From Candidatus Omnitrophota bacterium (GTDB lineage Bacteria; Omnitrophota; Gorgyraeia; JAHJTE01), in assembly GCA_018830005.1 (NCBI GenBank), contig JAHJTE010000003.1, positions 135,674-199,673 of the forward strand: a DNA stretch of 64,000 bases, in the 5' to 3' direction. The notes beneath the pieces were generated by a model. It did no database searches. It saw nothing but the letters and a program-made list of their open reading frames with translations, and was not told where the DNA came from. Position numbers and translations under genes: made by a program. How positions within the stretch are numbered: position 1 is the first letter of the stretch; each line of letters starts with the position of its first letter. Positions 361 through 55,606 of the stretch are shown here, one piece after another.

Positions 361-400
361 CAAAAACCCCCTGCAATGTATTCTATCACAGAGGCTTAGG
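361..400. repeat. 40-bp element, copy A (35/40 identical to 12478-12517)
   Basis: By-eye alignment of caaaaaccccctgcaatgtattctatcacagaggcttagg with the copy at 12478; both lie just left of tRNA-3'-end-like segments. Confidence 0.6.
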
Positions 401-425
401 AAATCAAGCTCCCCCGCGAGGACTC
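399..425. repeat. att-like copy of tRNA-Asn 3' end (18-bp exact match 408-425 = 55561-55578)
   Basis: gctcccccgcgaggactc is identical to the acceptor/T-stem segment of the tRNA at 55561-55578. The preceding atcaa also matches, apart from a 3-bp gap. Confidence 0.6.
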
Positions 426-627
426 CTCGCTTCGCGCTAGAACCTGTCGCTTTTATAAAGTAGCCCCCGCTCGATCACTCACTCCCCATTATGTAGGGAA
501 GATTTTATTTCTGCTTTATTAATCCAAATTCTTCTTTACTAATTATGTTATTTATTTTAAAATAAGAAAGGAATAGAAGAATGATAAGAGACAGGCAAAT
601 AAAAGAGGGGAGGAAAATTTTACGATT

Positions 628-2787
628 ATGAGTCAAGAAATTCTTCACAAACACCACTTCCTGCCGCGTGAAGTTATCACGTTTATTATTATAACTATAT
701 TGAGTGGTATTTGTTTATTTAACTTTGTCTCTCTCGAGCCTACTGTTGATAATAACTTTTTCTTCTCCAGCGAAGATCCACAATTTCAAAGCGAACATTT
801 AATTAACAGTTTATTCATCCGTAAAGACTCCCAGCTTATTATCTCAGCCACTGGTAATATTAATGGTACAGGATACCACGAAAAGATTTCAGAGCTGAGT
901 AAAAGATTGCTAGAAATCGATGGCGTAACCAATGTTAATAGTCTAACGCATGCGGGACCAGGTGATGTAAAAGCGGCCTTTAAGAGCCCTCTGTGGAAAC
1001 GCCTCATTGTCGCCAGCAACAGAAAATCAACCAATCTCATTGTCCTTTTAGACGAAAATAAAGTCTCCCTAATCATCCCAGAGATTGAAGAAACCATGGG
1101 CATCTTCGAGGATGAAGGTTTTCATCTGCAGGCAGCCGGACTGCCTTACGTTGTTGAATTAATTAGGCGTAACCTTCAGAAGGACTTTAGAATCTTCAGC
1201 CTCCTGGCCTTTTTAATATTCGGCTTTTTAATCTTTCAGATTTTTCGTTCAAAAAGTATCCTTTTAGGAACAATGCTATCCTGTCTGAATGCGGTTATGT
1301 GGACATTTAAGATAACGGATTTAATTGGTATTCCTATGGGCATTCTCACAGCGAATCTAGGTACGATTATTTTTGTTATGACACTTTCCCATATTATCTT
1401 TTTGACATTTAATTGGCGGATCTTCCGCTCTGATCCAAATAGTAAGAATCCTGTGGCTGACGCCATAGCACGAACACTGCCTCCTTCTATCTGGAGTATG
1501 CTGACAACGCTTTTAGGATTTTTAAGTTTGATGTCCGTATCAGCGAAACCTTTAAGGGAATTGGGTCACTCCGGTGCCCTCGGTTCTATAGTGGCGATCG
1601 TTGTGGCCTACGGTGTGTTTCCTACATTCTTAAGAGTGGCAAGCCAGCAGTCTGAGAAAAAAGGTAAGATTGAAAACTATGGAATAAAGACATATAAGTT
1701 TATTAACCTAGAAAAACAATTTATCATGCTGATCATTTTTGTCACCTGCCTTTTGACCTTACCGGGATTAAAAAGGCTTGATTCTGATCCGAGTCTTCTT
1801 TCTTACTTTTCTAAATCCAGTGAAATTCATAAGGGTCTAAGTTATATTGATCAAAACGGTGGCAGTAGTCCGCTTATTCTAGTTGTTGGTACAAAAAGTA
1901 AGGAGAAAATTCATTCGGACAAATCTTATAAGCAGCTATGGAATCTCCAGGAATCACTGGAGCAACACCGTGGCGTTGGCTCAGTCATATCCTTGCCCGT
2001 GCTCATTGCCCAAGCCGCAAAGACGCCTATTTTTGGCTGGCTTTTTCCGCGATCAATTCTGTTAAAAGCAATGGAGATGCCGACGAACGATAAGATTGCC
2101 AAGAGCTTTATAACAAAAGACCGTAAATATGGTCTCTTCTATCTGCGCATGATCGAATCATATCGTGTTCTGCCTCGCCTGGATGTTGTTGAAGAGATTA
2201 AATCCATAGCTGAGAATGAAGGCTTTCATACCGAAATCATCGGAGGCATATACAACCTGCAAGGACACTTAGCTAAGCTTGTTGCATCAAGTTTAGTAGG
2301 AGGACTGGGGAAACTTATTCTCCTTTTTGCTCTTATTACCTGGTTTATTTCGCGCTCTTTGCGTATGACCTTAGCTGTGGTAGCTAGTATTTCTATCATC
2401 CCCTTGACCATCCTGGGATGCTTTGGGGTATATCGAATCCCCTTAGACATTATTTCTGCTCCGGCTTCGAATGTCGCGATCGCCATGGGCATTGATTCCA
2501 TGATCCATATGATAAAATCTTTCCGTCGTACGCGAAACTGGCAAACGGTCCGCGATGAACTCTGGCAGCCAATATTAACTTCTATGTTTGTTGTTGCCGC
2601 TGGCTTCGGTATCTTTTTATTATCGAGCTTTCCTCCCACCCAGCGATTTGGCGGGGCTATTCTCTTCGGTACTGTCCTAGCAGCACTTACTGCCCTCTAC
2701 ATAATGCCCTTACTTTTCGAATATATTAGTTTGGATAAATGGAGGTCTCTTCTAAAGAAAAAACCAAAGACAACCACCTCTACTTGA
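628..2787 (+). CDS. RND-superfamily exporter (MMPL/HpnN-like, two 6-TM SSD-type bundles)
   Basis: 719 aa. Two internally repeated hydrophobic 6-TM blocks, each preceded by a soluble loop. The architecture and TM motifs (GxxxD/E...IPL) are typical of RND/MMPL transporters. Confidence 0.7.
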   Translation: MSQEILHKHHFLPREVITFIIITILSGICLFNFVSLEPTVDNNFFFSSEDPQFQSEHLINSLFIRKDSQLIISATGNINGTGYHEKISELSKRLLEIDGVTNVNSLTHAGPGDVKAAFKSPLWKRLIVASNRKSTNLIVLLDENKVSLIIPEIEETMGIFEDEGFHLQAAGLPYVVELIRRNLQKDFRIFSLLAFLIFGFLIFQIFRSKSILLGTMLSCLNAVMWTFKITDLIGIPMGILTANLGTIIFVMTLSHIIFLTFNWRIFRSDPNSKNPVADAIARTLPPSIWSMLTTLLGFLSLMSVSAKPLRELGHSGALGSIVAIVVAYGVFPTFLRVASQQSEKKGKIENYGIKTYKFINLEKQFIMLIIFVTCLLTLPGLKRLDSDPSLLSYFSKSSEIHKGLSYIDQNGGSSPLILVVGTKSKEKIHSDKSYKQLWNLQESLEQHRGVGSVISLPVLIAQAAKTPIFGWLFPRSILLKAMEMPTNDKIAKSFITKDRKYGLFYLRMIESYRVLPRLDVVEEIKSIAENEGFHTEIIGGIYNLQGHLAKLVASSLVGGLGKLILLFALITWFISRSLRMTLAVVASISIIPLTILGCFGVYRIPLDIISAPASNVAIAMGIDSMIHMIKSFRRTRNWQTVRDELWQPILTSMFVVAAGFGIFLLSSFPPTQRFGGAILFGTVLAALTALYIMPLLFEYISLDKWRSLLKKKPKTTTST

Positions 2788-2838
2788 TTATTTAAGATTT
2801 ACGCTTCTCCTAGCTTTGCAACGACTAAAAATAAAAAA

Positions 2839-2866
2839 GCCCCAAATAAATTGGGGCATTTTTTAT
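2839..2866 (+). terminator. rho-independent terminator after the RND gene
   Basis: gccccaa-ataaa-ttggggc hairpin followed by a T-run. Confidence 0.6.
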
Positions 2867-3016
2867 TCCTCCTGCCCTATTGGCGAGATAAGCTCTCTGA
2901 GGTAGCTAGAGTTAATTATAAGTACCTACAAAGGAACTTGCAGGCATGTGTTTAAAAAGGAATGTCAAGCCGATCAACAACCCGGACCGCCGAAGCGGTC
3001 CGAGCGTCGTCAAAAC

Positions 3017-3047
3017 TGGCTCCCCCTATTGGACGAATTTCGCAACT
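3017..3047. repeat. conserved intergenic motif copy R1 (tggctccccctattggacgaatttcgcaact)
   Basis: Core ccctattggacgaNtttcgcaact is shared with copies at 4876, 5646 and 11555. Confidence 0.6.
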
Positions 3048-3183
3048 TTTTAACTTCTCAAGAGGCGAACAAAATATTCAAGGAACTTATTTACGTCCTT
3101 GGCTAGTATTTATCTTACTGGACTGACATCCTTGAATAACATTGGGGGCTATAATAAATTTGTCAATTAACTGCGCGTATCCG

Positions 3184-4701
3184 TTATTTTCTCCGCATCA
3201 TCTTAATAAAATAGTTACGGAAACACTCCCAGTCACCCACAATGATTCTATTTATCGCAAATTGAAGGTTGTCCAGCAGCGTAATTATTCTAAAGACAAT
3301 CATAGTCAATACAGGAAATGCGATACTAACTTTATAGTAGAATTTTGGTAAAAAAAATCTGGCTATCCACCGCGGGAAAAAGCTTAGATTAAGCAGAAGT
3401 AAAATGATATCATAGGAATTATGAGGCTCAAAATGATAACTGCTTCTGTACGCCTGTTTAATCTCGTCAATTGCCAACCCTTTTTCTTTAGCAATCTTGT
3501 TCAGTTTCGTTCCCGGAAACAACATAAGATTATAATATATAAACCTGTATGGCCTAGGAATTTTTAACAAAAATCCAATACTCTCTCTCTGTTCGCCAAT
3601 TGTACCTAAAGGATCATGGCAGATTATATCATATCTAGGCGGAGACATACGATCTCTATAGCGATTAATCATGCTTATTGCTCGATAGATAGTTTTTGTG
3701 TCGGCTTTACGGTTGTAGCGCATTAAAGCAGTCAAGCTACCCGACTCTATCCCCATACAAAGATTACATAACCCTACCTCAACCAAGGCTTCTAGTTTCT
3801 CTTCGGTTACTGCTGAAGGAACAGTGATTGCCTTAAATGGAAGAGAAACTCTTTCCTTGTACATTCTACTAAACTCAATAATCTCTTCGCTACTTCTTGA
3901 AAAGAAACTATCATCTGCAAAGTGAATAAGCTCTATAAAATCATTTTCTCTACAGACATTCTCAAGCTCCTTGATTACGTCTGATATGGACCTTTTTCGA
4001 TAATGCCTAGCTGTGTACATAGAGTGATAAATTGAATTATTGCAGTAAGTACATGCAAAGGGACAGCCTCGGGAGGTCATAGTTTTATAAAAACATCGGT
4101 AAACTCCTCTGGCATCTTCATATACACGCCTACATTTTTCACGGTAAAGTTCACGTGTCAATTCCCCAGATTGTCCCATAATAGGATTAATGTAGAAATG
4201 GTCCTCAAAAGTAAAGTCCTGAAACGGAAGAGTAGAGATATCTTCTATTAGCGGAGAAAAGGAATTTTCTACAATCTTTCCCTTCTCAATATACCAAAGT
4301 CCGAGTATTTGAGAAATTGGTTTGCCGTCCATAATATCTTTTAATACTGGCTCGCCTTCTCCTACACATACCCAATCTGCAAATTTAAGACATTCCAGAG
4401 GCCTAACTGTAGCATGTATCCCGCCCCAAATTATTTTTGCCCTTGTGTTTTTATGAATAGCTTCGCTTAGCTGAGCAGCGAGAAAGAATAGATTAGTAAT
4501 AACTGTAATACCTACTATATCGCTATCATTTAAAATATTAACTACTTCCTGCAGGGTAACATTAGAATAAGATTTAAGTAAGGTAGGAGTGGGTAGAAAA
4601 ATGATTCTAGATTTATGGCCAAGACTTCGTACATAAGAAGAAAGGACACGCGAGCTCATCCCCGAAAACTCATCTACCATTGAAATAAAGGTTATTTTCA
4701 T
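3184..4701 (-). CDS. B12-binding domain radical SAM protein
   Basis: N-terminal Rossmann-like B12-binding region. CxxxCxxC cluster motif (RGCPFACTYC). 505 aa. Confidence 0.75.
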   Translation of the reverse strand: MKITFISMVDEFSGMSSRVLSSYVRSLGHKSRIIFLPTPTLLKSYSNVTLQEVVNILNDSDIVGITVITNLFFLAAQLSEAIHKNTRAKIIWGGIHATVRPLECLKFADWVCVGEGEPVLKDIMDGKPISQILGLWYIEKGKIVENSFSPLIEDISTLPFQDFTFEDHFYINPIMGQSGELTRELYREKCRRVYEDARGVYRCFYKTMTSRGCPFACTYCNNSIYHSMYTARHYRKRSISDVIKELENVCRENDFIELIHFADDSFFSRSSEEIIEFSRMYKERVSLPFKAITVPSAVTEEKLEALVEVGLCNLCMGIESGSLTALMRYNRKADTKTIYRAISMINRYRDRMSPPRYDIICHDPLGTIGEQRESIGFLLKIPRPYRFIYYNLMLFPGTKLNKIAKEKGLAIDEIKQAYRSSYHFEPHNSYDIILLLLNLSFFPRWIARFFLPKFYYKVSIAFPVLTMIVFRIITLLDNLQFAINRIIVGDWECFRNYFIKMMRRK

Positions 4702-4841
4702 ATTATATGCCGCGTTATTAGAAAACTAAAAATAATAGGCTCTCAATTCATAGTTGCTTGACTCAATTATAACTCCGCCAATAAAAATGGGCGGTCCTAT
4801 TTTTCTAAATTTCATTATACGCCGCGAAGGGAAATTTACAA

Positions 4842-4872
4842 TAAAAAAGCCCACCTTATTCAGATGGGCTGA
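4842..4872 (-). terminator. rho-independent terminator (minus strand)
   Basis: agccca...tgggct stem preceded by an A-run on plus, which is a U-run on minus. It lies downstream of the Cys-rich peptide gene. Confidence 0.5.
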
Positions 4873-4875
4873 ATT

Positions 4876-4905
4876 TTCTCCCCCTATTGGATGACTTTCG
4901 CAACT
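4876..4905. repeat. conserved intergenic motif copy R2
   Basis: ttctccccctattggatgactttcgcaact. Confidence 0.6.
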
Positions 4906-4969
4906 GGCTAATAATAAGAAAGGGGTGCTATATAAACACCCCTTTCTTAAAGCTGCCAGCTAATCAGAT

Positions 4970-5188
4970 TTAATCTACTTTTTTAGCGCAGCTACAACCT
5001 CTCTTACAATTACATGCGTTGTCCTTACAGCAATCGCCTTTGCAAGCGCACTGTTTTTCCCTGCAACATGTTTCCTGTGTGCACTGGCATTTAGCCTGCA
5101 AGCAACACTTCTCTTGCGCTAAAGTTGGTGTATTACTAAAAGGCAGCAAAAATGAAAGTAAAAACAATATCACAATTGTTTTTTTCAT
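4970..5188 (-). CDS. secreted Cys-rich metallothionein-like peptide (signal peptide + ~48-aa mature region with 18 Cys)
   Basis: Signal peptide MKKTIVILFLLSFLLPF...LAQE, then CC/CxC/CxxC clusters (KCCLQAKCQCTQETCC...CACKGDCCKDNACNCKRGCSC). Confidence 0.55.
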   Translation of the reverse strand: MKKTIVILFLLSFLLPFSNTPTLAQEKCCLQAKCQCTQETCCREKQCACKGDCCKDNACNCKRGCSCAKKVD

Positions 5189-5230
5189 GATAATACTCCT
5201 TTTTAAAAAGATTTACTTAAATATTACAAA

Positions 5231-5533
5231 TTAGGAATATTGCTTAGGAGGATGGAAGATTGACCGAATGGATTCTTCAGGCTGGACAAAGATATATTCA
5301 AAATCAAAATTCTCTTCTGGAAATATTATAGAAATTGCATCGGTATTTTTTATAGAGTCTACTGGCTGGGATATTTTCACACATAATTGAGGTTGACAAT
5401 CGCAAGATGAACCGCAACAGTCACATGCCTTATGCATCTTATGCGAATCTTTAATAAACATTTCAGAGAAGGAACATAAAACCAATGAGATAAAAATGAA
5501 CGTAAATAGAATTGTTATAAATATTTTTCTCAT
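5231..5533 (-). CDS. secreted small protein with CDCCGSSCDC motif
   Basis: N-terminal signal/TM segment. Cys cluster CDCCGSSCDCQPQLC. Adjacent to the other Cys-rich peptide. Confidence 0.45.
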   Translation of the reverse strand: MRKIFITILFTFIFISLVLCSFSEMFIKDSHKMHKACDCCGSSCDCQPQLCVKISQPVDSIKNTDAISIIFPEENFDFEYIFVQPEESIRSIFHPPKQYS

Positions 5534-5599
5534 AGATACTCACCTAAATAGCATTTTAAGTATAGCATAATTTTTTAAGAAAAACAAATCAACAAGCCA

Positions 5600-5637
5600 T
5601 AAAAAACCCTCCGCAAGTTTTTAATTTGCAGAGGGTT
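5600..5637 (-). terminator. rho-independent terminator of acr3 copy A
   Basis: aaccctccgcaa...ttgcagagggtt hairpin plus an A-run on plus (U-run on minus). Nearly identical to the terminator at 6838-6872. Confidence 0.65.
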
Positions 5638-5645
5638 GTGGAATT

Positions 5646-5675
5646 TTCTCCCCCTATTGGACGACTTTCGCAACT
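5646..5675. repeat. conserved intergenic motif copy R3
   Basis: ttctccccctattggacgactttcgcaact. Confidence 0.6.
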
Positions 5676-5722
5676 TTTTGGAAGAATCTAAGGAGTATTG
5701 CCTTAACGATGAAATAAAGAAA

Positions 5723-6787
5723 TTACTTGAAGAAATGTCGAGTTTTCAAACACATTCGCACTAACATTAGCATAACTGGCACTTCAATAAGTACTCCAAC
5801 CACAGTTGCCAACGATGCTCCTGATGAAAGACCAAACAACATAGCAGAAGTAGCAATTGCAACTTCAAAGTGATTGCTCGCTCCAATTAGTGCAGACGGT
5901 GCGGCATCTCTGTAGGGTAACTTTAACCATTTAGCGATTGCATATGTTAAAGCAAAAATGAAACAGGTCTGGATAAAAAGTGGTATAGCTATTAAAAATA
6001 TTACTTGGGGCTGCTCAATAATAAGTTCTCCTTTAAACGAAAATAATAGAACAAGCGTAACAAGCAACGCCCCGATTGATATTGGTGTCAAATAATGAAG
6101 GAATTTTTCCTCAAACCATTTCATTCCTTTTTTAGCAATGATAAGTTTTCTTGAGTGATACCCTAAAAAGAGTGGCAGCCCCACATAGGTAACTACTGAC
6201 AATACAATTGTCTGCCACGGAATGGGCATCCTGTTTACACCTAAAAGCCAACCTCCCAATGGTGCATAAAGAAACAACATTGTGAGTGAATTTATTGCTA
6301 CCATAACAAGTGTATGACCATCATTACCTTTTGACAGATGCCCCCAAACAAGCACCATTGCTGTACAAGGAGCTATGCCTAATAAGATACAGCCAGAAAT
6401 ATATGAACGGTAAAGTTCAACCTGCGTACCACCTTTGATAATCTCAAATCCTGGGAGTAGCCCCTTAAATAAAACACCTAAAAATAAAGTAGCTATTGCA
6501 AGCATAGTGAAAGGTTTGATGCACCAGTTTACAAACAGGGTAAGCAAAACAGGTTTAGGACTTTTTCCTGCCTTAACAACCTCAGCGAAATCAATTTTAA
6601 CCATAATCGGATACATCATAAAGAAAAGGCATATCGCAATAGGTATAGATACCTGATAAATTGATATGCTGTCTAAGGTAACGGCAACTTGGGGGAATAA
6701 TTTACCCAAGAGTATTCCCAGACCGATACACCCTATAACCCATAGGGTAAGATATTTCTCAAAGGAACTTAATTGTCGTTCTTCCAT
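5723..6787 (-). CDS. acr3: arsenite efflux transporter, Acr3 family (copy A)
   Basis: 354 aa, about 10 TM. N-terminal FEKYLTLWV and the [13 protein letters not shown] and PCTAMV motifs are typical of the ACR3/BART family. Confidence 0.85.
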
Positions 6788-6837
6788 CTTTTTCTCCTCT
6801 GAATCTTACGACTTAGTTAAGTTATAATTCTACCTCA

Positions 6838-6872
6838 AACAAAAACCCTCCGCAAGTTTTTAATTTGCAGAG
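6838..6872 (-). terminator. rho-independent terminator of acr3 copy B
   Basis: Same hairpin as at 5600-5637. Confidence 0.65.
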
Positions 6873-6885
6873 GATTAGTGTAATT

Positions 6886-6920
6886 TTCTCCCCGAGACCC
6901 CCAAAAATCCGAACTTTTGG
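6886..6920. repeat. diverged motif copy R4 (ttctccccgagaccc...aaaatccgaacttttgg)
   Basis: Shares the ttttctcccc start with the other copies, then carries an atccgaactttt motif that also recurs at 11298-11450. Confidence 0.4.
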
Positions 6921-7015
6921 CAAGCAACAATATATCTAGGAAAGAACGGGCTAAAGAACGGAGAAAGGTGGAAAATTTTAGTTTAGCACTCACACTGCTT
7001 TGGCTGGTATTTCTT

Positions 7016-8209
7016 TTATTTAAACCATCCTCGCGTATTCAGGCAAACACGCACAAGCATCAGCATCACAGGAACCTCAATCAGCACGCCAACAACAGTC
7101 GCCAACGCTGCTCCCGACGAAAGCCCAAAAAGCATAGTCGCCGTTGCAATAGCAACCTCGAAATGATTACTTGCGCCAATCATTGCCGAGGGAGCCGCAT
7201 CCTCATAACTCAACCTCAATTTCTTCGCCAGCCAATATGTTATACCAAATATCAAGCATGTCTGGATAAATAAAGGAATTGCTATCCATAAAATCGTCAA
7301 CGGCTTAGCAAGGATAACTGCCCCTTTAAAAGAGAACAAAAGAACCAACGTAAAAAGTAAAGCAATTATTGAGACTGGTGACAGCACATGCAAAAACTTC
7401 TCATTAAACCAATCTATTCCTTTATGACTTATAATCCACTTTCTTGAAAAAAAACCTGCAACTAACGGCAACGCAACATAGATAGCAATAGATAACAGCA
7501 ACGCTTGCCACGGAACAGGCATCCTTCCCACACCAAGAAGGAACCCACCAAGCACACCGTAAAGCAAAAGCATTGTTAAGGAATTGATAGCAACCATAAC
7601 AAGGGTGTGTCCGTCATTGCCTTTTGCAAGAAATCCCCAGACCAAAACCATTGCTGTGCATGGAGCTATACCGAGAAGAATACATCCAGCAAAATAGCTT
7701 CTCCACAAAGGCACCTGCAACATTCTCATTCCTTCATGCATAACAACCTGACCTGCACCATGAATTGAACCTACAGCCCAATCTATTGCTCCAGGAGGGA
7801 GTTTTACAAAATCCACTGCTTCTGCACCAATAAAACCCTTAAACAGCACACCCAAAAACAGAAAAGCAATAGCATACATGGTAAAAGGTTTTATTGCCCA
7901 GTTTACAAATAGCGTTAAACCAACAGGCTTGGGCGACTTGCCAGCCTTAATAACCTCAGCAAAATCAATCTTAACCATGATAGGATACATCATGAAAAAA
8001 AGACATATCGCAATGGGAACCGAAACAACAGGAGCACCACCGACATAAATAGAAAGGCCGTCAAGACACTTCGCCATTCCAGGCGCAATCTTACCTATTA
8101 AGATACCCCCGCCGATACACAACAAAACCCACAGCGTCAGATACTTCTCAAAAACCGACATACCCCTATTAACATTCTTTTCCATTTTTATATCTCCACA
8201 CTCCATCAT
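7016..8209 (-). CDS. acr3: arsenite efflux transporter, Acr3 family (copy B, with ~45-aa insertion)
   Basis: Paralog of copy A with high identity across the TM regions. It carries an extra loop ([38 protein letters not shown]). The start may be the internal MSVFEKYL. Confidence 0.8.
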
Positions 8210-8886
8210 AAATAGTTAATCATGATGTGTGACCAGACAAAATATATCCCTACCACAATAAATATCACTCCTGTAATCTTTCTTGCCCATAATTCTAATT
8301 TTGCAGTCTTATGAAACCACTTCGAAAACGACTTCACGCCAAAAACAATCCCCAACGCAAAAATGGTAACAGGAATTCCTGTGCCGATACCGTAAATAAA
8401 AGGATAAGTCATCCCTATTTTACTGTTCAATGCAAGTGGGATAAGGCTTCCGAAGAACAATGCGGCAGCAATAGGACAGAATGATAAGGCGAAAAGCATC
8501 CCGAGAAGAAATGCTCCGCCAGTTCCTGACTCAGCCAGCTTATTCTGCTTCTCATGAGACAACGAAAAAGAAAACGAACTGAACCTGATAACGTCAAGAA
8601 GAAACAATCCGACAATTAACAGAATTGGCCCAATTATCTTATTCAGATAAATTTGCAGAAAATTTGCTATAGATGGAACGCTTACGAGAGAAGCGATAAT
8701 GACAGAACCGATAACTGCGTAAGTCACCATCCTCCCGAGAACGTAAGCAATGCTCGAAAGAAACACAGCCATGGGATGATTAACCTTCTTTGAAAGAAAA
8801 GAAACAGCCGCAATATTCGTTGCAAGCGGACAAGGACTGATGGAAGTAAGTATGCCAAGCCACAAAGCAGACAAAAGCTCAATCAT
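8206..8886 (-). CDS. ccdA: cytochrome c biogenesis/thiol-disulfide transporter CcdA (DsbD transmembrane domain)
   Basis: [10 protein letters not shown] motif at the first TM. 6-TM, 226 aa. Overlaps neighbouring genes (ATGA). Confidence 0.7.
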
Positions 8887-9380
8887 GAGGAACCCCCTGC
8901 AATAAACGCTTCGGTCTCCTTTTTGACGTAATCAAAAAACTGCTGCTTGTTCCTAATAAATTGCCAGACACCCTCAAGGTTTTTGTAACCGACTTCTTTT
9001 CCGTCCTCAACTTTTGAAAGGACTACGCTTTTTGTGTAAAGCTTGTAATCATTAACGAAGTGCTCATTGCCTTTTTCCTCAACATTCACGGCACGGAACT
9101 CAAGCCCTCCGGAAGCAATCTCGTCGCTGAAATAAAGCTCCAAGGCTTCCTTTGTATAAGCCTCAATAGCTTTGCACGAGGCGCATCTGTAATTGCCGTA
9201 AAAATAATACGCAACAACGCCGGAATCAGAAACAGGAACAGAAGCGATAGGCGATGAGTCGACGCTTGAGGCGTCTTCAACAACTCCCAAAGAAGACGTA
9301 TCGCTCTCTTTAGGCGAATCACAGCCAGGAAGAAAAGACATGGCGAGAAGACCTACGGCTAAAAAAACAGGCAAAAACAA
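8883..9380 (-). CDS. thioredoxin-fold lipoprotein (CxxC)
   Basis: Lipobox FLPGC. CASC redox motif. Positioned between the Thioredoxin_3 gene and CcdA. Confidence 0.4.
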   Translation of the reverse strand: MFLPVFLAVGLLAMSFLPGCDSPKESDTSSLGVVEDASSVDSSPIASVPVSDSGVVAYYFYGNYRCASCKAIEAYTKEALELYFSDEIASGGLEFRAVNVEEKGNEHFVNDYKLYTKSVVLSKVEDGKEVGYKNLEGVWQFIRNKQQFFDYVKKETEAFIAGGSS

Positions 9381-9410
9381 AAACTTTTTCGTTTGATCAT
9401 CCTCCCCTAT

Positions 9411-9641
9411 TTATGAAAACATTCCTTTAATCTCATCACTCGAAGGCACCTTTCCTGCAACCTTCACCTTTCCGTCAACAACCAAAGCAGGCGTGGTCAT
9501 AACGCCATACTCCGTTATCTTGTCCATATCCTCAACCTTGATTAGCTCTGCATCAACACCTATCTCATCAACAGCTTTTTGTGCATTATCATATAACTGC
9601 TTGCACTTAGGACAACCCATGCCCAAAATCTCAATTTTCAT
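9411..9641 (-). CDS. small thioredoxin family protein (redox-active disulfide protein 2 type, GCPKC)
   Basis: Start trimmed to the internal MKIEILGMGCPKC, which has a GGGAGG SD 8 nt upstream. 76 aa. This is the classic partner of DUF318 permeases. Confidence 0.7.
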   Translation of the reverse strand: MKIEILGMGCPKCKQLYDNAQKAVDEIGVDAELIKVEDMDKITEYGVMTTPALVVDGKVKVAGKVPSSDEIKGMFS

Positions 9642-9663
9642 CTCTAATACCTCCCTAAATAAT

Positions 9664-10848
9664 TTAGCCTGCAATCATTCCAAATATAATTCCGCTCAGA
9701 GTTGCCATAACGACAACAAGGCCAACATAGACAACAGTCTTCTTAGTTCCTATAACACCTCTAATAACAAGCATATTGGGAAGACTCAAAGCAGGCCCTG
9801 CAAGAAGCAATGCAAGTGCTGGCCCTTTTCCCATGCCAGAACCAATCAAGCCCTGAAGTATGGGAACTTCTGTAAGTGTTGCAAAATACATGAACGCCCC
9901 GACAATTGACGCAAAAAAGTTAGCGAAAAGCGAATTGCCGCCAACAAGCCTCTCAATGAACACTGAAGGGATCAAACCCTCTTGCCCCGGTCTTCCCAAA
10001 AGAAGACCAGCAACCAAAACGCCTGCAAGAAGAAGAGGCATAATCTGCTTTGCAAAACCCCACGAACTCTGCGTCCATTCTTTAAGCTTGTTTTTCTTAA
10101 ACCACCGAAATAACATGATGCCAAGAAGGGATAGAAAAATAAGCGTAATCACCCATTTTGAACCAAAAATAGTAGCCCACAAGCCTGTATCGCCTTCCTG
10201 TGGTTTTCCCCAATTAGCAAAAACAAGAACTGCGACCATAGAGAAAAAATACATTCCGTTCTTCCAAAGAGGTCGCGTTTTCTCTTCTTCGCCGAATTGA
10301 AACTTTCCGTTAACCTGTCTTTCTCGCTCCTCTTTGAGAAATATGAGGTGCATCAGAAGACCGACGACTACACTAAAAACGATTACCCCGACAGCTCTCG
10401 CCACACCAAGCTGCCAACCAAGAATCCTCGCAGTCATTATTATAGCCAAAACATTAATTGCTGGCCCCGAATACAGAAACGCAACAGCAGGCCCAAGCCC
10501 GGCACCCTTCTTGTAGATACCCGAAAACAGAGGAAGAACCGTGCAGGAACAAACAGCAAGAATAGTTCCCGAAACAGAAGCCACGCCGTAAGCAACAATC
10601 TTCTTTGCCTCAGCACCGAAATACTTAATGACAGAAGCCTGACTCACAAAAACAGAAATCGCCCCAGCAATAAAAAAGGCCGGAACAAGACACAACAAAA
10701 CATGCTCCCTTGCATACCACCGCACAAGAGCTAATGACTCAAACAAAGGATTTCTGAAAGGCAGAAGTTCGACAGGCAAATAAAAGCACGCCAAAAACGC
10801 CGCCGTCATCAACAAAAACTTGTCTCTTTCCTTCATTCTTATCTCCAC
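9664..10848 (-). CDS. DUF318/ArsP-type permease (putative organoarsenical efflux)
   Basis: Two 4-5-TM halves. CSC motif in TM (AVCSCTVLPLFSG) as in ArsP. Lies directly downstream of arsR. Confidence 0.6.
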   Translation of the reverse strand: MEIRMKERDKFLLMTAAFLACFYLPVELLPFRNPLFESLALVRWYAREHVLLCLVPAFFIAGAISVFVSQASVIKYFGAEAKKIVAYGVASVSGTILAVCSCTVLPLFSGIYKKGAGLGPAVAFLYSGPAINVLAIIMTARILGWQLGVARAVGVIVFSVVVGLLMHLIFLKEERERQVNGKFQFGEEEKTRPLWKNGMYFFSMVAVLVFANWGKPQEGDTGLWATIFGSKWVITLIFLSLLGIMLFRWFKKNKLKEWTQSSWGFAKQIMPLLLAGVLVAGLLLGRPGQEGLIPSVFIERLVGGNSLFANFFASIVGAFMYFATLTEVPILQGLIGSGMGKGPALALLLAGPALSLPNMLVIRGVIGTKKTVVYVGLVVVMATLSGIIFGMIAG

Positions 10849-10885
10849 ATTTCCATCTGGTTATGTAATTTCGGCAAAAAAATAT

Positions 10886-11227
10886 TCATTTCCTGCAACA
10901 GAGCTTTTTCCTGTTAGCTTTCTCTGCCCTCTTTAAATCATCAATCATTGCCTTGTCATCATTCAGCCACTGACTAAGCATAGCAAGCAGCTTCTTTGCA
11001 TAAAGATTCTTCGGGCTAACAAAATAGTTAGTCCAAAAACCGTCCTGTTCAGAAGCAACAAGGCCAGCACCCACCAACTTTTTAAGCTGTTTGGACACCG
11101 CAGGCTGAGAAACCCCAAGAACAAACGCAAGCTCACAAACACACATCTTACGCTTCTCAAGAAGCTTCAGAATCCTCACCCTGTTAACATCAGCCAACGC
11201 CTTAAAGATAGTATCCAAATCTTTCAT
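10886..11227 (-). CDS. arsR: ArsR/SmtB-family metalloregulator
   Basis: wHTH (VNRVRILKLL...CVCELAFVLGVSQPAVSKQLKKL) carrying the CVC metalloid-binding motif. Start taken at MKDLDTIF. Confidence 0.75.
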   Translation of the reverse strand: MKDLDTIFKALADVNRVRILKLLEKRKMCVCELAFVLGVSQPAVSKQLKKLVGAGLVASEQDGFWTNYFVSPKNLYAKKLLAMLSQWLNDDKAMIDDLKRAEKANRKKLCCRK

Positions 11228-11297
11228 AAATATACACCCTTTCACAACCAAATAACTAAACGGTTATATAAATCTTACTGTTTCCAACCCAAGAAGT

Positions 11298-11460
11298 CAA
11301 GAACAAAAAAGTTCGGATATTTGAATAAGGGGGGTCGATTCAGACAAAATCCGAACTCTGTATTTCTACTGCGAAAAACGCATTTTCCATATAAAAAAGC
11401 CCCAGCTACGATAAGTAACTGAGGCTATATCCGAAAAAAGTTCGGATTTTCAAATTGGCT
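11298..11460. promoter_or_regulatory. candidate operator: aaaagttcggat direct and inverted copies upstream of arsR
   Basis: agttcggat at about 11300 and 11437, and atccgaact at about 11354. They lie in the arsR upstream region. The same motif occurs at 6896. Confidence 0.3.
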
Positions 11461-11554
11461 CCCCGAAACGTTCTCTCATCAAACCACATTCACCTATGAG
11501 TTTCGATTTACGATACGGAGAACTGCTCACGGACAGAAGCGGCTTTCTTCAAAA

Positions 11555-11583
11555 CCCTCCCCTATTGGACGAGTTTCGCAACT
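11555..11583. repeat. conserved intergenic motif copy R5
   Basis: ccctcccctattggacgagtttcgcaact. Confidence 0.55.
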
Positions 11584-11654
11584 GGCTGGACTCAGAAAGA
11601 GACAACATCCATAATCTGAGTCTCAAGTAATTGTTAATATAAACTTAACTAAGC

Positions 11655-12449: not shown

Positions 12450-12477
12450 CTTTTCTCCTTTTGATATTCAGCTAAAA

Positions 12478-12517: not shown

Positions 12518-12564
12518 ATGGCAACTCCACGCTTAGAGTCAGTTAAAACGGAGCCCCATTAAAA

Positions 12565-31734: not shown

Positions 31735-31736
31735 GC

Positions 31737-50165: not shown

Positions 50166-52289
50166 GTGAAGGTAAGCCCCAGATTCCAACAAGCGCGGAA
50201 CACAATAGAATTCTTCGGCCTGCAAAACAACGAGGTCATACTTCGCCTTTTCAAAACTTTTGCAAGAAACCAGCGCAACACCACAGCATACCATACGCTA
50301 ATGCGCGCAATCCACAACCACCCTTATGTAATGAACAAACAGATCAGCCAAAGCCCATTCGCCACGCCACCACCCCCCACAACACAGCAAGGCAAAATGC
50401 GCATCGGCTTAGACGAACACAACAGGCCATACCACCTTGAAATAAAAAATTTCACCAAACACCTCCTGATAACAGGAACAACAGGCTTTGGAAAAACATC
50501 ATTTTTCCAAAACACAATGACCTTCCTGCACAAAATGGGAACAAAGTTCTTGGCGATTGACATAAAGAAAGACACGCGCGAACTGCTCCACCGCATTCCA
50601 ATGCTCATCCTGCGCTTCAAAGAAAACACCAACTTCAAACTCAACCCCCTACAGCGACTGCCAGGCGTAAGCCAGATAGAACAGGACGACCTCTTTATCA
50701 GACTGCTCGCAGAAACCACATTCTTGGCTGAAGGCTCCACAAGCCTATTGCTTGACTCTCTCTGCGAACTACGAAACAAAAAAGGCGCCATAACCGTCTT
50801 TGACCTTTACCAATCAATCGAAGAAAAAGGAAAAAAATTCCGCACATTAAGACAGCTGGGATGGCGGGACAGCTGCCTCCGAAGCCTAAAAACACTAGTC
50901 CTATCATTCGGGCCAATGCTAGACTGCGCAGAAGGACTTCCCATCCACCGCATAATCCAAGAACACAACGTCGTAGCAGAGCTTGACTCGGCAGGCTCAT
51001 ACAAAAGCTTCTTCGGCACCCTCCTCCCAGCCTACTACCTGAAATGGAAAATCAGCAACAACATCAAAAGCCCGTTTCACGCAAACTTCTGCGACGAAGG
51101 AAACATGCTGCTAAGCAAAACCATAGAGTTCCACAGCGTCACAAAAAAGCTAAGCATCCTCACACTCATAGAGCTTGGCAGGGAATTCCAAGAATCATGG
51201 TTCATCTCAAGCCAAGAACCAAAAAAGCTGTCAGAAAGCGTGAAGTGCAACACAGCCACAAAAATCCTCCTTCCCCTGGAAGACGGGCCCAGCAGAAATT
51301 ACATGAGCGATACCGTAGGCATGACACAAACACAAACAATACACACAACCCTGTTCGTCACAGGACAGTCAGTCGTAAAACAAGAAGGACAAAAACCACA
51401 CAAAATAACCCTGGACCCCCCTCCTGAAAATGCCGGGCTCACAGAATTCAGCGACCAAGAAGCCGAACAAGAAAGCCAACCCATCATAAACCAGTACCCC
51501 ACAAAAATGAAAAAACAGACAATAACTATCGAGGAATTCAAGCCGGCACAAAAGTGCCCCAGATGCGGAACCGGAGAACTAATAATTAAAGAAGGAAAAT
51601 TTGGAAAATTCATAGCCTGCAATCAGTACCCAAACTGCAAACACACGGAGCAACTCAAAAACGAACAGCCACAAGAACTCACACAACAACAAAAAGAACT
51701 ATTATGGCACATCAAACTACACCCCGAACTTTCCAAAACACAACACTACAAAAGCCTCAATCTCTCAGCCGGAAAAGCAGACAACCTTATGAAAAAAATG
51801 CGTCACCTCGTAAGAGAAATCACCATTCCCACACAACAGCGCGGCAGACAACCAATCCTACTCGCGCTCACCAAACAGGCATGCCAACAGCTCGGCGTAG
51901 AACAGCCTCGCACCAGAGGAGCAGAAATAGAACACGACTTCCACGTAGCCCGCTACGTCGCACAGCTCAAAAAAGCGGGACACAAAGCAGAGCCGAACTT
52001 CAAGCTCAAAGATAAAGAAGCAGACATCGGCATAATGCTCCCCAACGGAGAAATAATCGCAGTAGAAATAAGCACGACAACAACGCCCGAATGGGAAATG
52101 CAACAAGCCATCAAAAACATCAAAGCAGGATTTGACAAAACAATAATCATAAACACCAACCCTGACAAATCTCAGGAGTTTAACATAAAAGCGCAGTTTC
52201 AGCTAAGCCCCGAACAAGAAAGCAAAATAACCATATCGCAGCTGATACCAGACATAACAGAACTGATACGAAAGGAGCAAGAAACGTGA
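50166..52289 (+). CDS. FtsK/HerA-superfamily ATPase fused to topoisomerase-type C4 zinc ribbon and C-terminal nuclease-like domain, paralog 2
   Basis: Walker A LITGTTGFGKTSF. CPRCGTGELIIKEGKFGKFIACNQYPNCKH zinc ribbon. C-terminal EIEHDFHV...DIGIML...AVEIST. GTG start with SD aaggag. Confidence 0.55.
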   Translation: MKVSPRFQQARNTIEFFGLQNNEVILRLFKTFARNQRNTTAYHTLMRAIHNHPYVMNKQISQSPFATPPPPTTQQGKMRIGLDEHNRPYHLEIKNFTKHLLITGTTGFGKTSFFQNTMTFLHKMGTKFLAIDIKKDTRELLHRIPMLILRFKENTNFKLNPLQRLPGVSQIEQDDLFIRLLAETTFLAEGSTSLLLDSLCELRNKKGAITVFDLYQSIEEKGKKFRTLRQLGWRDSCLRSLKTLVLSFGPMLDCAEGLPIHRIIQEHNVVAELDSAGSYKSFFGTLLPAYYLKWKISNNIKSPFHANFCDEGNMLLSKTIEFHSVTKKLSILTLIELGREFQESWFISSQEPKKLSESVKCNTATKILLPLEDGPSRNYMSDTVGMTQTQTIHTTLFVTGQSVVKQEGQKPHKITLDPPPENAGLTEFSDQEAEQESQPIINQYPTKMKKQTITIEEFKPAQKCPRCGTGELIIKEGKFGKFIACNQYPNCKHTEQLKNEQPQELTQQQKELLWHIKLHPELSKTQHYKSLNLSAGKADNLMKKMRHLVREITIPTQQRGRQPILLALTKQACQQLGVEQPRTRGAEIEHDFHVARYVAQLKKAGHKAEPNFKLKDKEADIGIMLPNGEIIAVEISTTTTPEWEMQQAIKNIKAGFDKTIIINTNPDKSQEFNIKAQFQLSPEQESKITISQLIPDITELIRKEQET

Positions 52290-53685: not shown

Positions 53686-53714
53686 ATCCAAAACCGAAAA
53701 AAGGGGCCGGAACA

Positions 53715-53900
53715 GTGAAGAAAGCAGTAAGCAAAAAATGCAGAAGCAGAAAAATGAAGCTTCACAGCTTCACGTGGGAACTTCTGCCTCCCGGCACCCT
53801 CAAACGAGATAAATCAAAACACCAAAAGCCCGAAGAACGATGGAACGAAATACAAGCCATAGGCAGCCAGATAATAGCCGAAAGCAAAGAAACTAATTGA
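53715..53900 (+). CDS. small basic hypothetical protein
   Basis: ORF. Confidence 0.25.
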   Translation: MKKAVSKKCRSRKMKLHSFTWELLPPGTLKRDKSKHQKPEERWNEIQAIGSQIIAESKETN

Positions 53901-53953
53901 CAAAATGTCTTATTTGGACTACCATATGATACAGTTAATAACAGGAAAGAATT

Positions 53954-55606
53954 ATGAAAGACAAAAAGTGCGCCCTATATATTCGAGTTTCTACCCCCCG
54001 CCAGGCAAGCGTTGAAGACGGCAGCCTCGACGCCCAGGAATCCAAGCTAAAAGCCTACGTCAACTACGAAAACACATCCAAACAAGACAAGTGGAAAATA
54101 AGCGGAACCTACCGAGAAGAAGGACGCAGTGCCAAAGACCTCAAGCGCCCACAATTCCAGCGCATGATGCAAGACATCAACGACGGCAAAATAAACACCA
54201 TAGTCGTCTGGAAAATCGACAGGCTCACCCGCAGCCTCAAAGACTTCTCCAACCTATGGGAAACATTCAAAGACCAAGGCATACAACTCATCAGCCTAAA
54301 CGAAAAATTCGACACAAGCACAGCAATCGGCAGAGCAATGCTCACCATCATCCTCGTCTTCGCTCAACTCGAACGCGAGCAAACCGGAGAAAGAACCTCA
54401 GCCACAATGCAATACCGCGCAGAACAAGGACTCTGGAACGGAGGCAGAATACTCGGCTACGACCTTGATAAAGAAAAAAAGGGCGTGCTCAAAATCAACA
54501 AAGAACAATCCAAACTGATAAACAAAGCTTTCGAGCTATGCATGCAAAAAGGCAGCGCAGGCCAAACCCAACAAATACTTAACGAACTCGGCCACAGAAT
54601 GCCAACATACGAATCACGCAGAGGCAAAAAACACGGCAATACCCTCTTCACAAAACAAGCAGTAATAAGACTTCTGACAAACTCCGCCTATATTGGAAAA
54701 ATCAGTTGGGCCGGCAAACTATACAAAGGAATACAGAAGCCCATCATAGATGCAAAAACATTCGATAAAGTCCAGACAATACTAGGAAAGAACCGTAAAA
54801 CAAGAACCAATGAAAGAGCACCCAAGCAACACGTCTACATCCTCCAGGGCATTCTCAAGTGCGGCAAGTGCGGCTCAATGCTCACTCCAAAAAGCGGCAA
54901 GAACGGCTCCGGACAGCCATACCATTATTATCAATGCACCCAGAACAGCCACATAGGAAAACAAGCGTGCAAAGCCAAATATGTTCCTGCTAAAAGCATT
55001 GAAGACTTTGTTCTCGAAAGAGTCCGCGAGCTGTCAACCAAGCAAGAAGAAATTGACGCAATGATAGAAAGGGCTAGCAAGGCAGGAAACAAACAGATAA
55101 CCCAGCTTGAGGAGAATAAAAAAAGGCTTCTGGCAAAACTTCAAGAAGTCAAAGGCAGGCTCGGAAAGATAGTGGACGCCATAGAGGCCGGACAGGCATT
55201 CAGAACATTCTCTGAACGCGTCAAAACTCTTGAAGAAGAACGCGAAAGCCTAGAAAAAAAGATAGAAGAAACTTCTTTCGAAATAGAAAAAGCCAGTCAG
55301 GAAATACTGAGCGCAGAAACAATGAAGCAAAACTTCCAACAGCTCAGGGACGTAATAGATAAAGCTAATCCTCAGCAACTGAAAGACCTGCTCTACAACA
55401 TCATAGAAGTCATCGAATACCACGAATCAACAGACGACAAATCAACAGGACACCTCAAAATAAGCTACTTCGAACAACCCAACCTCACCATACCCGACCC
55501 CAAAAATACAAAGAGCGAACAACACCCAAATGGGGCATTGTTCGCTCAGAGTATCAAATGGCTCCCCCGCGAGGACTCGAACCTCGGACATGGTGGTTAC
55601 AAGTGA
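53954..55606 (+). CDS. large serine recombinase (resolvase-domain integrase)
   Basis: N-terminal resolvase catalytic domain (YIRVSTPRQ...VWKIDRLTRS). Recombinase domain and zinc ribbon (CGKCGSML...YYQC). Coiled coil. The 3' end overlaps the tRNA 3' exon. Confidence 0.8.
   Translation: MKDKKCALYIRVSTPRQASVEDGSLDAQESKLKAYVNYENTSKQDKWKISGTYREEGRSAKDLKRPQFQRMMQDINDGKINTIVVWKIDRLTRSLKDFSNLWETFKDQGIQLISLNEKFDTSTAIGRAMLTIILVFAQLEREQTGERTSATMQYRAEQGLWNGGRILGYDLDKEKKGVLKINKEQSKLINKAFELCMQKGSAGQTQQILNELGHRMPTYESRRGKKHGNTLFTKQAVIRLLTNSAYIGKISWAGKLYKGIQKPIIDAKTFDKVQTILGKNRKTRTNERAPKQHVYILQGILKCGKCGSMLTPKSGKNGSGQPYHYYQCTQNSHIGKQACKAKYVPAKSIEDFVLERVRELSTKQEEIDAMIERASKAGNKQITQLEENKKRLLAKLQEVKGRLGKIVDAIEAGQAFRTFSERVKTLEEERESLEKKIEETSFEIEKASQEILSAETMKQNFQQLRDVIDKANPQQLKDLLYNIIEVIEYHESTDDKSTGHLKISYFEQPNLTIPDPKNTKSEQHPNGALFAQSIKWLPREDSNLGHGGYK

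Follow-up and report, generated by a model that had tools for sequence, protein, structure and literature searches.

How do copies of a single tRNA end come to lie far apart in one bacterial chromosome, and what put them there? The question is raised by a 64,000-nt stretch of DNA from a Candidatus Omnitrophota bacterium (contig JAHJTE010000003.1; hereafter, the window, meaning the whole stretch analysed), in which a reading made from the sequence alone had proposed successive integrations at the 3' end of one tRNA-Asn gene. Our results revealed that this proposal is right in its main idea: the window holds a nested array of insertions at a tRNA-Asn, and empty sites were found in a sister genome (contig L001) and in two loci of other species (L117 and L038). 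The youngest layer is a 42,976-bp integrative element with its own large serine recombinase (LSR), whose gene contains the attachment site of the element, attP, and is split by integration. We hold with high confidence the reading as a whole, namely layered insertions at an intron-split tRNA-Asn, with the LSR element the youngest of them, a recombinase gene split at attP, and older layers associated with an ars (arsenic-resistance) island. The coordinates of all features are collected in Table 1.

Empty site and attachment sites of the inner element

The inner element is exactly absent from L001, a contig of a sister metagenome-assembled genome (MAG; GCA_043815545.1). Specifically, L001 positions 6709-15153 match window positions 64000-55556 (99.99% identity over 8445 bp), positions 15128-17955 match window positions 12605-9778 (99.89% over 2829 bp), and the contig joins window position 55556 straight to 12605. 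It carries the intron-bearing tRNA-Asn and then, at once, the terminator and the genes for a 264-amino-acid (aa) protein, ArsR, and ArsP. An empty site had been named as the check on the proposal. The sister contig, 99.9-100% identical to the window, bears the proposal out for the inner element, and its junction places the ends within a few bases of the 12.6 and 55.6 kb that had been predicted.

From this junction, all four attachment (att) sites can be written down. The attB site reads ...CCGTTTGAAG TGGCTCCCC CGCGAGGACTCGAACC... (junction ...CCGTTTGAAGTGGCTCCCCCGCGAGGACTCGAACC...), attL consists of the left arm of attB and the core followed by GAGCGAGACTCGAAGCGAACAAT, and attR consists of ATTGTTCGCTCAGAGTATCAAA and the core followed by the tRNA. 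The 9-bp core TGGCTCCCC comprises the only bases common to attB, attP, attL, and attR. The reconstructed attP (junction ...GCATTGTTCGCTCAGAGTATCAAATGGCTCCCCGAGCGAGACTCGAAGCGAACAATAAGG...) is a 54-bp imperfect palindrome with perfect 10-bp terminal inverted repeats (ATTGTTCGCT and AGCGAACAAT); its symmetry is best about the TC of TGGC-TC-CCC, where the half-sites match at 16 of 24 positions. Independent elements at three other loci (L125, L126, and L128) have this core and these arms as well. We consider it proven that the 42,976-bp element was inserted by its LSR.

By our reading, this element, which carries defence genes, was integrated by its own LSR through recombination of the 54-bp attP with an attB made up of the tRNA acceptor end and the terminator behind it. 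Strand exchange took place within TGGCTCCCC, the central TC being its likeliest point. In place of the terminal tRNA bases, the CCA, the spacer, and the terminator, the element brings copies of its own, and the tRNA therefore stays intact. The supplied terminator hairpin sits within the recombinase open reading frame (ORF), and its right half is part of attP.

The att sites also explain the copies of the tRNA end. The 18-mer GCTCCCCCGCGAGGACTC occurs in the window only at 408-425 and 55561-55578, on the plus strand in both cases, which confirms the exact copy reported earlier at 408-425; there is no further match with up to three mismatches and none in 100 dinucleotide-preserving shuffles, with none expected by chance. 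The stretch at 12583-12608 had been described as a degenerate third copy. Its likeness to the tRNA end, in the same orientation as the other two, is genuine, and it is a composite of nine exact bases (TGGCTCCCC, 12583-12591) and a differing, tRNA-like GAGCGAGACTCGAAGCGAAC. Rather than a decayed tRNA, it is attL, core plus P' arm; the likeness comes from the P' arm, which imitates the half-site in the tRNA to which the enzyme likewise binds in attB. The core sequence is found four times in the window, versus 0.17 expected, the remaining two copies (3017 and 11456) being members of an unrelated intergenic repeat family. The conserved atcaa said to flank the copies adds little, being short and shifted by 3 nt.

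Two related contigs deserve mention beside these sites. A third assembly of the same species (L002, a Logan contig from SRR6514730 found by exact-protein look-up of recR and its 196-aa neighbour) breaks at 8455-8494, exactly within the tRNA-Asn 3' end; the break fits a population mixed for occupied and empty sites, and it could also be an ordinary repeat-induced break. L126 (Omnitrophota contig JAHITY010000099.1, GCA_018817165.1) holds three attL-like cores in the same orientation, at 10019, 12963, and ~16226, two of them with identical 29-mers; tail ORFs follow the first and third core, and AbiEii modules lie between cores. What they form is a tandem array of this element family that is independent of the one in the window and has partly decayed.

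An intron-split tRNA-Asn as the insertion site

ARAGORN called no tRNA on the whole window, a false negative that arises because a group I intron splits the gene. Rfam family RF00028 matches positions 55607-55812 on the minus strand (84 bits, against a gathering score of 50), and when the exons at 55886-55852 and 55599-55559 are joined, the resulting 76 nt are called by ARAGORN as tRNA-Asn(gtt). The intact 3' end at 55559-55578 and the Asn identity given earlier are hence correct by way of the spliced sequence, the gene not being a plain one; the intron, like the recombinase gene that spans attP, had been overlooked. We set the intron boundaries by exon joining and by comparison with intronless homologues, which share the mature tRNA sequence. 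The splice sites show the U-1 (exon 1 ...CTGT) and terminal intron G (...CTTG), and a promoter-like site precedes the gene at 55965-55938. By these features, it is classed as a group I intron in the anticodon loop and is predicted to be self-splicing.

The intron type is not new: the seed alignment of a 2020 preprint (Williams 2020, bioRxiv 10.1101/2020.01.27.920355) already lists it, as 'Pam37.Asn.4Ug' (Asn, loop position 4, U-1/G). The window intron agrees with that type in isoacceptor, site, U-1, and terminal G, and differs in nothing essential. What is new is its polymorphism across related loci (74 of 117 with the intron, 43 without) and the integration of islands into its 3' exon. RF00028 scores 74.6-93.6 bits in five related loci, and the intron is kept (at 8870-9081) in L006, the closest species representative, a Candidatus Omnitrophota MAG whose Memo-AMMECR1 protein is 67% identical.

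The recombinase gene spans attP

The sequence-only reading had the serine recombinase abutting the tRNA end. The adjacency holds, and the ORF reads on through the whole 3' exon to stop 7 nt into the intron. The 550-aa product of the integrated state consists of 535 element-encoded residues, WLP from the core, and 12 residues antisense to the tRNA 3' exon and 7 nt of the intron (...FAQSIK-WLP-REDSNLGHGGYK*). PF00239 covers residues 7-160 (E=3e-39; motif YIRVSTPRQ with Ser13), PF07508 residues 184-279, and PF13408 (Zn_ribbon_recom) residues 296-358. On the basis of these catalytic, recombinase, and zinc-ribbon domains and of the att anatomy, the enzyme is assigned to the large serine recombinases and predicted to catalyse integration. 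The 550-aa form also keeps the ~175 residues that follow its Pfam-detected domains, the part in which other LSRs have their coiled coil. A promoter-like site lies ahead of the gene at 53897-53925, and no directionality factor was identified for this LSR.

At the far end of the element, the reading phase of the recombinase is open from the core onward (WLPERDSKRTIRR...NH*) and encodes a ParB-type helix-turn-helix (HTH) domain (PF17762, E=1.6e-12; Noc/ParB/Spo0J HTH in PDB, E=3e-8). Because the same phase is open on either side of the core, the LSR encoded by the excised circle would be 668 aa long, with the ParB-type HTH at its C terminus; since attP lies inside the ORF, integration splits the gene. 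The free circle would thereby give the 668-aa enzyme and the integrated form the 550-aa enzyme, with the Pfam recombinase domains kept; integration would exchange the HTH tail for the 12 antisense-tRNA residues and leave the HTH part stranded 43 kb away at attL.

Fused and split homologues both occur in nature. A search with the hypothetical fusion retrieved a contiguous protein of 691 aa (P0048; 58% identity, 99% coverage), and further contiguous fusions are P0060 (621 aa, N-terminally truncated), P0118 (666 aa), and P0126 (658 aa), the last two with PF17762. P0048 is encoded on five contigs of ~19-22 kb, four of which (L128-L131) are shown here, each from a different sample or assembly, and its DNA holds an intact attP-like site with the same core. 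Integrated relatives share ...FAQSxxWLP and then diverge into antisense-tRNA translations (WLPSTDSNRGPSG, WLPSADSNHGQGG, and WLLGLDSNQQ..., with, for example, ...DSN...). Relatives of the tail in the database are short ORFs in 42 of 42 cases. In the 19 that we aligned, homology begins, where the junction is reached, at WLP(E/D), with no conserved Met, and the sequence ahead of WLP is unrelated and 1 to ~90 residues long. Finally, tail codons 4-69, from the core to the first Met, show a ratio of nonsynonymous to synonymous substitution (dN/dS) of 0.10-0.15, with synonymous sites near saturation; the split-off tail is under purifying selection in the LSR frame. There is good support for the splitting of the gene upon integration.

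The arrangement recurs at this site. A scan of Joint Genome Institute (JGI) metagenomes with the tRNA-Asn 3' half as the sole selection yielded 114 loci, and 118 loci, the window included, were scanned for ORFs. A long antisense ORF of 170-558 codons runs into the tRNA end in 30 of the 114 (31 of the 118 with the window); 21 of these 31 are in the phase seen in the window, six in the second, and four in the third. LSR homologues were detected next to tRNA-Asn in 34 of the 114. A tblastn search with the tail against all fetched loci gave no match, because the contigs are too short to reach the far element ends.

The contigs L128-L131 (18.8-22.1 kb) represent a putatively unintegrated relative with the fused 691-aa recombinase. 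They carry genes for E2/E1-like proteins of the type found in cyclic-oligonucleotide-based antiphage signalling systems (CBASS), an AAA_13 ATPase, a MazE-PIN pair, and an FtsK-like ATPase, and all end within ~400 bp of each other, downstream of the recombinase.

Gene content of the inner element

Gene content was scanned with Pfam, PADLOC, and PHROG, the Pfam and PHROG scans covering 46 ORFs, 36 of them the larger ORFs, with PHROG profiles applied to ten ORFs. PADLOC matches in the defence block (Table 1) were DndD (4.8e-138), DndH (2.2e-43), and MTase_I (1.9e-151), along with mad2, mad5, and mad8 (MADS-type). Elsewhere, the element encodes a DUF4238/SEC-C protein, two DUF2958 paralogues, SpoVG, LemA, an extracytoplasmic function (ECF) sigma/anti-sigma pair, and an M48 peptidase-prenyltransferase fusion. 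There are two FtsK/HerA-type ATPases, one at 20070-21623 and one at 50166-52289. The latter is the one backbone gene held in common with the unintegrated relative, in which a 26% identical homologue lies upstream of the fused LSR in L128-L131.

The inner element had been called a mosaic with a second recombinase plus an excisionase (Xis). The second recombinase is there, a tyrosine recombinase, and the remainder of that claim found no backing: no flanking direct repeats and no repeat-bounded nested element were found around it, and Pfam gave no excisionase-type domain in the larger ORFs nearby, the short ORFs of 45-97 aa there being left unscanned. Neither Pfam nor PHROG recovered capsid, portal, tail, relaxase, or type IV secretion proteins among the 46 ORFs. 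A prophage identity was considered and set aside, with no structural matches by Pfam (or by PHROG on the ten ORFs) and a single, distant recombinase match when IMG/VR was scanned with the fused protein.

Two repeats were seen in the same region. One is a 149-nt inverted repeat (18494-18642 and 22875-23023, 71% complementary) that corresponds to the opposed DUF2958 paralogues and is the only long inverted repeat there. The other is a plus-strand motif, CTTTTCAGTGyAAA (18781-18809, 20147-20175, 22181-22209, 27267-27295, and 29872-29896), which mostly stands just upstream of plus-strand ORFs and may be a candidate element-specific promoter or regulator site.

Older layers at the same tRNA end

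Between the tRNA and its original downstream flank, there are at least three layers. In both L117 and L038, the tRNA-Asn lacks the intron and runs directly into TTTGATTTCCTAACCCTCTGTGATAGAATATATTGCAGAGGGTTTTTG, and window positions 425-355 (minus strand) are identical to the tRNA-Asn end plus flank of L117 at 64 of 68 positions. The same flank type is present in L104, L115, L058, L073, and L114. Both L117 and L038 have dnaX-recR synteny upstream in common with the window, and in L117 the two genes lie just upstream of the tRNA-Asn. Because the tRNA-Asn sits directly on this native flank in L117 and L038, everything from 55559 to 408 is inserted relative to the ancestral state. The empty site called for earlier, a tRNA-Asn directly followed by the sequence now left of 408, exists, if in other species only. 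The ars island is absent between the tRNA-Asn and the native flank in L117 and L038, and it is unchanged in the sister MAG (L001/L004).

The earlier claim of an outer ars/MMPL island of 0.43-12.6 kb as a second element is borne out in that this DNA is inserted relative to the ancestral state. It is not a simple element: no recombinase is encoded in 501-12478 (Pfam), and the 18-mer comes from elsewhere. On its tRNA-proximal side, the outer part has a 42-nt terminator insert; a degenerate tRNA end and another copy of the flank come behind it. This copy (12479-12541) aligns with the native flank over 61 nt at ~82% identity (local score 74, against 18 ± 3.3 for shuffled sequence), and with 355-425, it forms a ~60-nt direct repeat that brackets the ars island. 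At the far side, 426-500 is a truncated copy of a small element, which we call element X and to which the exact 18-mer belongs. In our reading, the tRNA-Asn(GUU) 3' end is an insertion hot spot, at which the older layers comprise the 42-nt terminator insert with the degenerate tRNA end and flank behind it, and then a ~12-kb ars/MMPL island ending in a truncated element X, whose terminal 18 bp are the exact tRNA copy at 408-425.

Within the island, the tandem Acr3/SBF arsenite-carrier paralogues share a 191-nt stretch of 76% identity. Similar terminator hairpins at 5602-5654 and 6841-6893 belong to one family with those at 362-414 and 12479-12531, which are the terminators of the tRNA flank. 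Four copies are present of an intergenic motif of ~35 nt, CTCCCCCTATTGGAyGAnTTTCGCAACT on the plus strand (3013-3047, 4871-4905, 5641-5675, and 11549-11583), three of which lie upstream of minus-strand genes (those for the radical SAM protein, a 100-aa ORF, and ArsR); it is therefore a candidate shared promoter, operator, or leader.

Outside the array, the full cdaA-like gene of the left core flank is found in L004 and L005 with PF02457 (DAC), its 71 N-terminal residues being 100% identical to those in the window, and the order there is the cdaA-like diadenylate cyclase, then efflux genes, then rlmN. The right core flank is collinear with L001 and 99.99% identical to it.

A small tRNA-linked element

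Element X is a family, defined by nhmmer, of ~170-230 nt that lies directly behind tRNA terminators in many loci (Table 1). The element is made up of an antisense-like version of the neighbouring tRNA's T arm, in which TCG is constantly changed to GAG; two hairpins; and a copy, in sense orientation, of that tRNA's 3' end. The hairpins are conserved, with compensatory changes at 9 of 22 pairs. The ends match tRNA-Asn in most copies; one copy behind a tRNA-Ser(GCT) ends in the tRNA-Ser 3' end, with the core conserved. The window remnant at 426-500 was assigned to the family by eye, against the distal ends in L103 and L086, nhmmer (E<1e-3) giving no match there. No Rfam family matched element X, even at E<=1. 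We considered transfer-messenger RNA (tmRNA), signal recognition particle (SRP) RNA, retron RNA, guide or bridge RNA, a miniature inverted-repeat transposable element (MITE), and quasi-palindrome extension at the terminator, none of which could be established; a mini integrative element, a structured RNA, and a guide-like RNA are candidates.

Table 1. Features of the window (plus-strand positions) and copies of element X in related loci (positions within each locus)
Feature	Position	Strand	Remarks
Left core flank: start of membrane diadenylate cyclase, cdaA-like	1-213	-	Runs off the window
Native tRNA-Asn downstream flank with terminator hairpin	355-407	-	Now 55 kb from the tRNA
Displaced tRNA-Asn 3'-end copy	408-425	-	18-bp exact direct repeat; last four bases of T loop (GAGT), 3' strand of T stem, 3' strand of acceptor
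Remnant of element X	426-500	-	Distal ~75 nt of a truncated ~200-nt copy; the ars island starts within the second hairpin
Outer ars/MMPL island	501-12478		Pfam
MMPL protein	628-2787		
B12-radical SAM protein	3184-4701		
Acr3/SBF transporter	5723-6787		
Acr3/SBF transporter	7016-8209		
DsbD-like protein	8206-8886		
ArsP permease	9664-10848		
ArsR	10886-11251		
264-aa protein	11655-12449		
Second, degenerate copy of tRNA end, native flank, and terminator	12479-12541	-	Family D2
attB B arm: terminator hairpin and spacer behind the tRNA	12546-12582	-	Identical to L001 sequence right after CCA
attL crossover core TGGCTCCCC	12583-12591	+	Predicted central dinucleotide TC at 12587-12588
attP P' arm GAGCGAGACTCGAAGCGAACAAT	12592-12614	+	Last 10 bases are a perfect inverted repeat of the first 10 of the P arm
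Split-off 3' part of recombinase gene, ParB-type HTH	12583-12984	+	133 codons, core to stop; no conserved start codon
Inner integrative element, core to core	12583-55558		42,976 bp
Tyrosine recombinase	27881-29359	+	PF00589; phrog_1 integrase
Defence cargo: DndE/DndH-HerA-like ATPase, DndD/PbeC-like SMC ATPase, Mrr_N protein, type I-like specificity subunit, large N6 methyltransferase, GHKL ATPase	30208-40398	-	Pfam
FtsK/HerA-like ATPase with topoisomerase-type zinc ribbon	50166-52289	+	Pfam
LSR, integrated state	53954-55606	+	550 aa; PF00239, PF07508, PF13408
Element-supplied terminator hairpin for the tRNA	55513-55547	-	15-bp stem, then T run TTTGTATTTT
attP P arm ATTGTTCGCTCAGAGTATCAAA	55537-55558	+	
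attR crossover core TGGCTCCCC	55559-55567	+	Complement of tRNA ...GGGGAGCCA-3'
tRNA-Asn 3' exon	55559-55599	-	41 nt, CCA encoded; TAACCACC...GGGGGAGCCA
Group I intron	55600-55851	-	252 nt, between anticodon nucleotides 35 and 36 (GU|U)
tRNA-Asn 5' exon	55852-55886	-	35 nt, ends ...GGCTGT
Right core flank: 196-aa protein, Memo-AMMECR1 fusion, spermidine-synthase-like protein, radical SAM protein, recR, dnaX	55978-64000		Pfam
Element X, L103	2990-3146		
Element X, L086	8792-9002		
Element X, L006	8583-8765		
Element X, L049	4243-4419; 1131-1285		Two copies
Element X, L055	1320-1489		
Element X, L108	404-594		
Element X, L122	2966-3149		
Element X, L095	10218-10379		
Element X, L126	9688-9975		

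Alternative explanations

Several observations weigh against layered, site-specific insertion as set out above, and they are given here with the alternatives on which they bear. For the outer part, no same-species empty allele was found and no crossover site was defined, and the repeated flank resembles a terminator family that occurs twice more within the island (at 5602 and 6841). The ars/MMPL island may never have integrated independently, having come instead by homologous recombination between flank and terminator copies, or by insertion into a pre-existing element X, in which case the 18-bp repeat would be silent on how it arrived; we regard this as a lesser, if serious, possibility. It would suit an island that has no recombinase, that begins within the second hairpin of the truncated element X that owns the 18-mer, that is bracketed by ~60-nt native-flank repeats of 82% identity and not by a short core, and that is carried by both available genomes of the species. 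However, the island lies exactly between the tRNA end and the displaced native flank, as site-specific accretion gives, and many related loci carry small and large inserts at the same point, bounded by the same 17-nt repeat. Further, recombinase-free elements bounded by att sites, the cis-mobilizable elements (CIMEs), are known to be mobilised in trans. Accretion by site-specific events is the best reading of the outer part.

For the inner element itself, neither a circular junction nor an excised form was seen, and relatives with the fused recombinase are only 35-58% identical. Moreover, the best 150 matches of the tail profile among 1.84 billion representatives are all short, many covering the HTH part only; therefore, fused forms are rare in assemblies, stand-alone small ParB-HTH proteins also exist, and fusion could be a minority state. 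Gene callers annotate the tail ORF as a separate 135-aa protein (P0001), and several tail copies have candidate start codons (TTG/ATG) just upstream of the core, by at least two codons, so that separate expression of the tail is possible. We nevertheless find it quite unlikely that ORF 12583-12984 is an ordinary, separate small ParB-HTH gene, with its phase incidental and the functional end of the recombinase before the core. There is no stop codon between recombinase and core in the window and 30 other loci; tails that reach the junction are homologous from the core on, with unrelated host sequence of variable length before it; the 66 codons ahead of the first Met of the tail are under purifying selection in the LSR frame; four natural proteins are contiguous across the junction; and in the integrated state, a terminator hairpin stands directly upstream of the tail, with no room for a promoter. 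That the inner element is a prophage or an integrative and conjugative element (ICE), and not a plain integrative island, seems rather unlikely: it has two FtsK/HerA-type ATPases, that at 50166-52289 conserved beside the recombinase in the unintegrated relative, and weak PHROG matches to the P-loop region of terminase large subunits, but the structural and transfer proteins named above are missing from the 46 ORFs, IMG/VR yielded its single distant match, and the recognisable genes are mostly defence and regulatory cargo. Extremely improbable is an unrelated 43-kb deletion in the sister genome, or an assembly artefact at the L001 join, either of which would leave no true attB. Both sources are metagenome assemblies, and L002 breaks exactly at the tRNA end, but the join falls within the 9 bases common to both ends and restores a complete tRNA and terminator, in size and symmetry the reconstructed attP is like a serine-integrase site, and the same core and arms are found in the independent elements L125, L126, and L128. 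We therefore retain integration by the LSR, with its gene split at attP, for the inner element, which may still be capable of excision.

Relation to known systems

The recombinase and its sites resemble those of the serine integrases of phiC31, Bxb1, TP901-1, and A118 in the set of Resolvase, Recombinase, and zinc-ribbon domains and in the placement of the recombinase gene at the element end. They also resemble them in that the att sites are small (~50 bp) and imperfectly dyad-symmetric, that attP and attB are identical over a very short stretch, and that the central dinucleotide is non-palindromic. Unlike these integrases, the window LSR targets a tRNA 3' end, has attP inside its ORF, and carries an extra ParB-type HTH that integration removes. 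To our knowledge, targeting of tRNA 3' ends is typical of tyrosine, and not of serine, integrases. Searches of the open-access literature brought up no serine integrase whose gene contains attP, and none that bears a ParB tail, absence there not being proof. The closest parallel in mechanism is offered by the SSV1-type ('suicidal') integrases of archaeal viruses and plasmids. Their ORF contains attP, they use a tRNA gene as target, and upon integration an N part and a C part of the integrase gene come to lie at the two ends of the element (PMC7253208). These are tyrosine recombinases, reported to be confined to archaea as yet, and the split inactivates them (PMC7253208). The window LSR is like them in its attP within the ORF, its tRNA target, and the splitting of its gene, a resemblance of mechanism only; it differs in being a bacterial serine recombinase that keeps its three Pfam domains intact and loses only an accessory DNA-binding domain, whereas the SSV1-type split leaves two inactive pseudogenes.

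As an array, the locus is like those of the staphylococcal cassette chromosomes (SCCmec/SCC) at the 3' end of rlmH, with the serine recombinases CcrAB, and those of ICEs and CIMEs at the 3' end of fda in Streptococcus thermophilus, in its stacking at one gene end. In those arrays, as generally known, elements stack at one gene end, the earlier copy of that end is displaced, and some members are recombinase-free with att-like repeats. The window layers seem to differ from them in their crossover points, at the acceptor end for the LSR and in the T loop for the older repeat, and the oldest layer is a decayed ~200-nt element. The tRNA-stacked array of islands as such is an ordinary structure; novel, as a variation on known kinds, is the serine integrase, which takes the end of a tRNA as its target and whose gene is cut in two upon integration.

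Significance

This locus provides a computationally closed case of a serine integrase at a tRNA acceptor end, with attB, attP, attL, and attR all in hand and dozens of relatives at the same site. The natural pair of enzymes, of 668 and 550 aa with defined 50-bp sites, is of possible interest for integrase engineering. Since tRNA finders miss the intron-split tRNA, island mapping based on tRNA genes would miss such hot spots in Omnitrophota and related uncultured lineages. The removal of a domain upon integration further offers a testable idea of the means by which an enzyme of this kind could tell the free from the integrated state of its element. The exchange of domains may control the direction or timing of recombination, provide for binding of the free circle, or bring about silencing by convergent tRNA transcription. 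Tentatively, we suggest that serine integrases with attP inside their gene might form a widespread family in which integration at a tRNA end is a state switch, with a full-length, ParB-tailed form made when the element is free and a tail-less form, from an mRNA antisense to the tRNA, made when it is integrated, the difference between the two controlling the direction or timing of recombination, or else how the free circle is partitioned or expressed, with or without a separate directionality factor.

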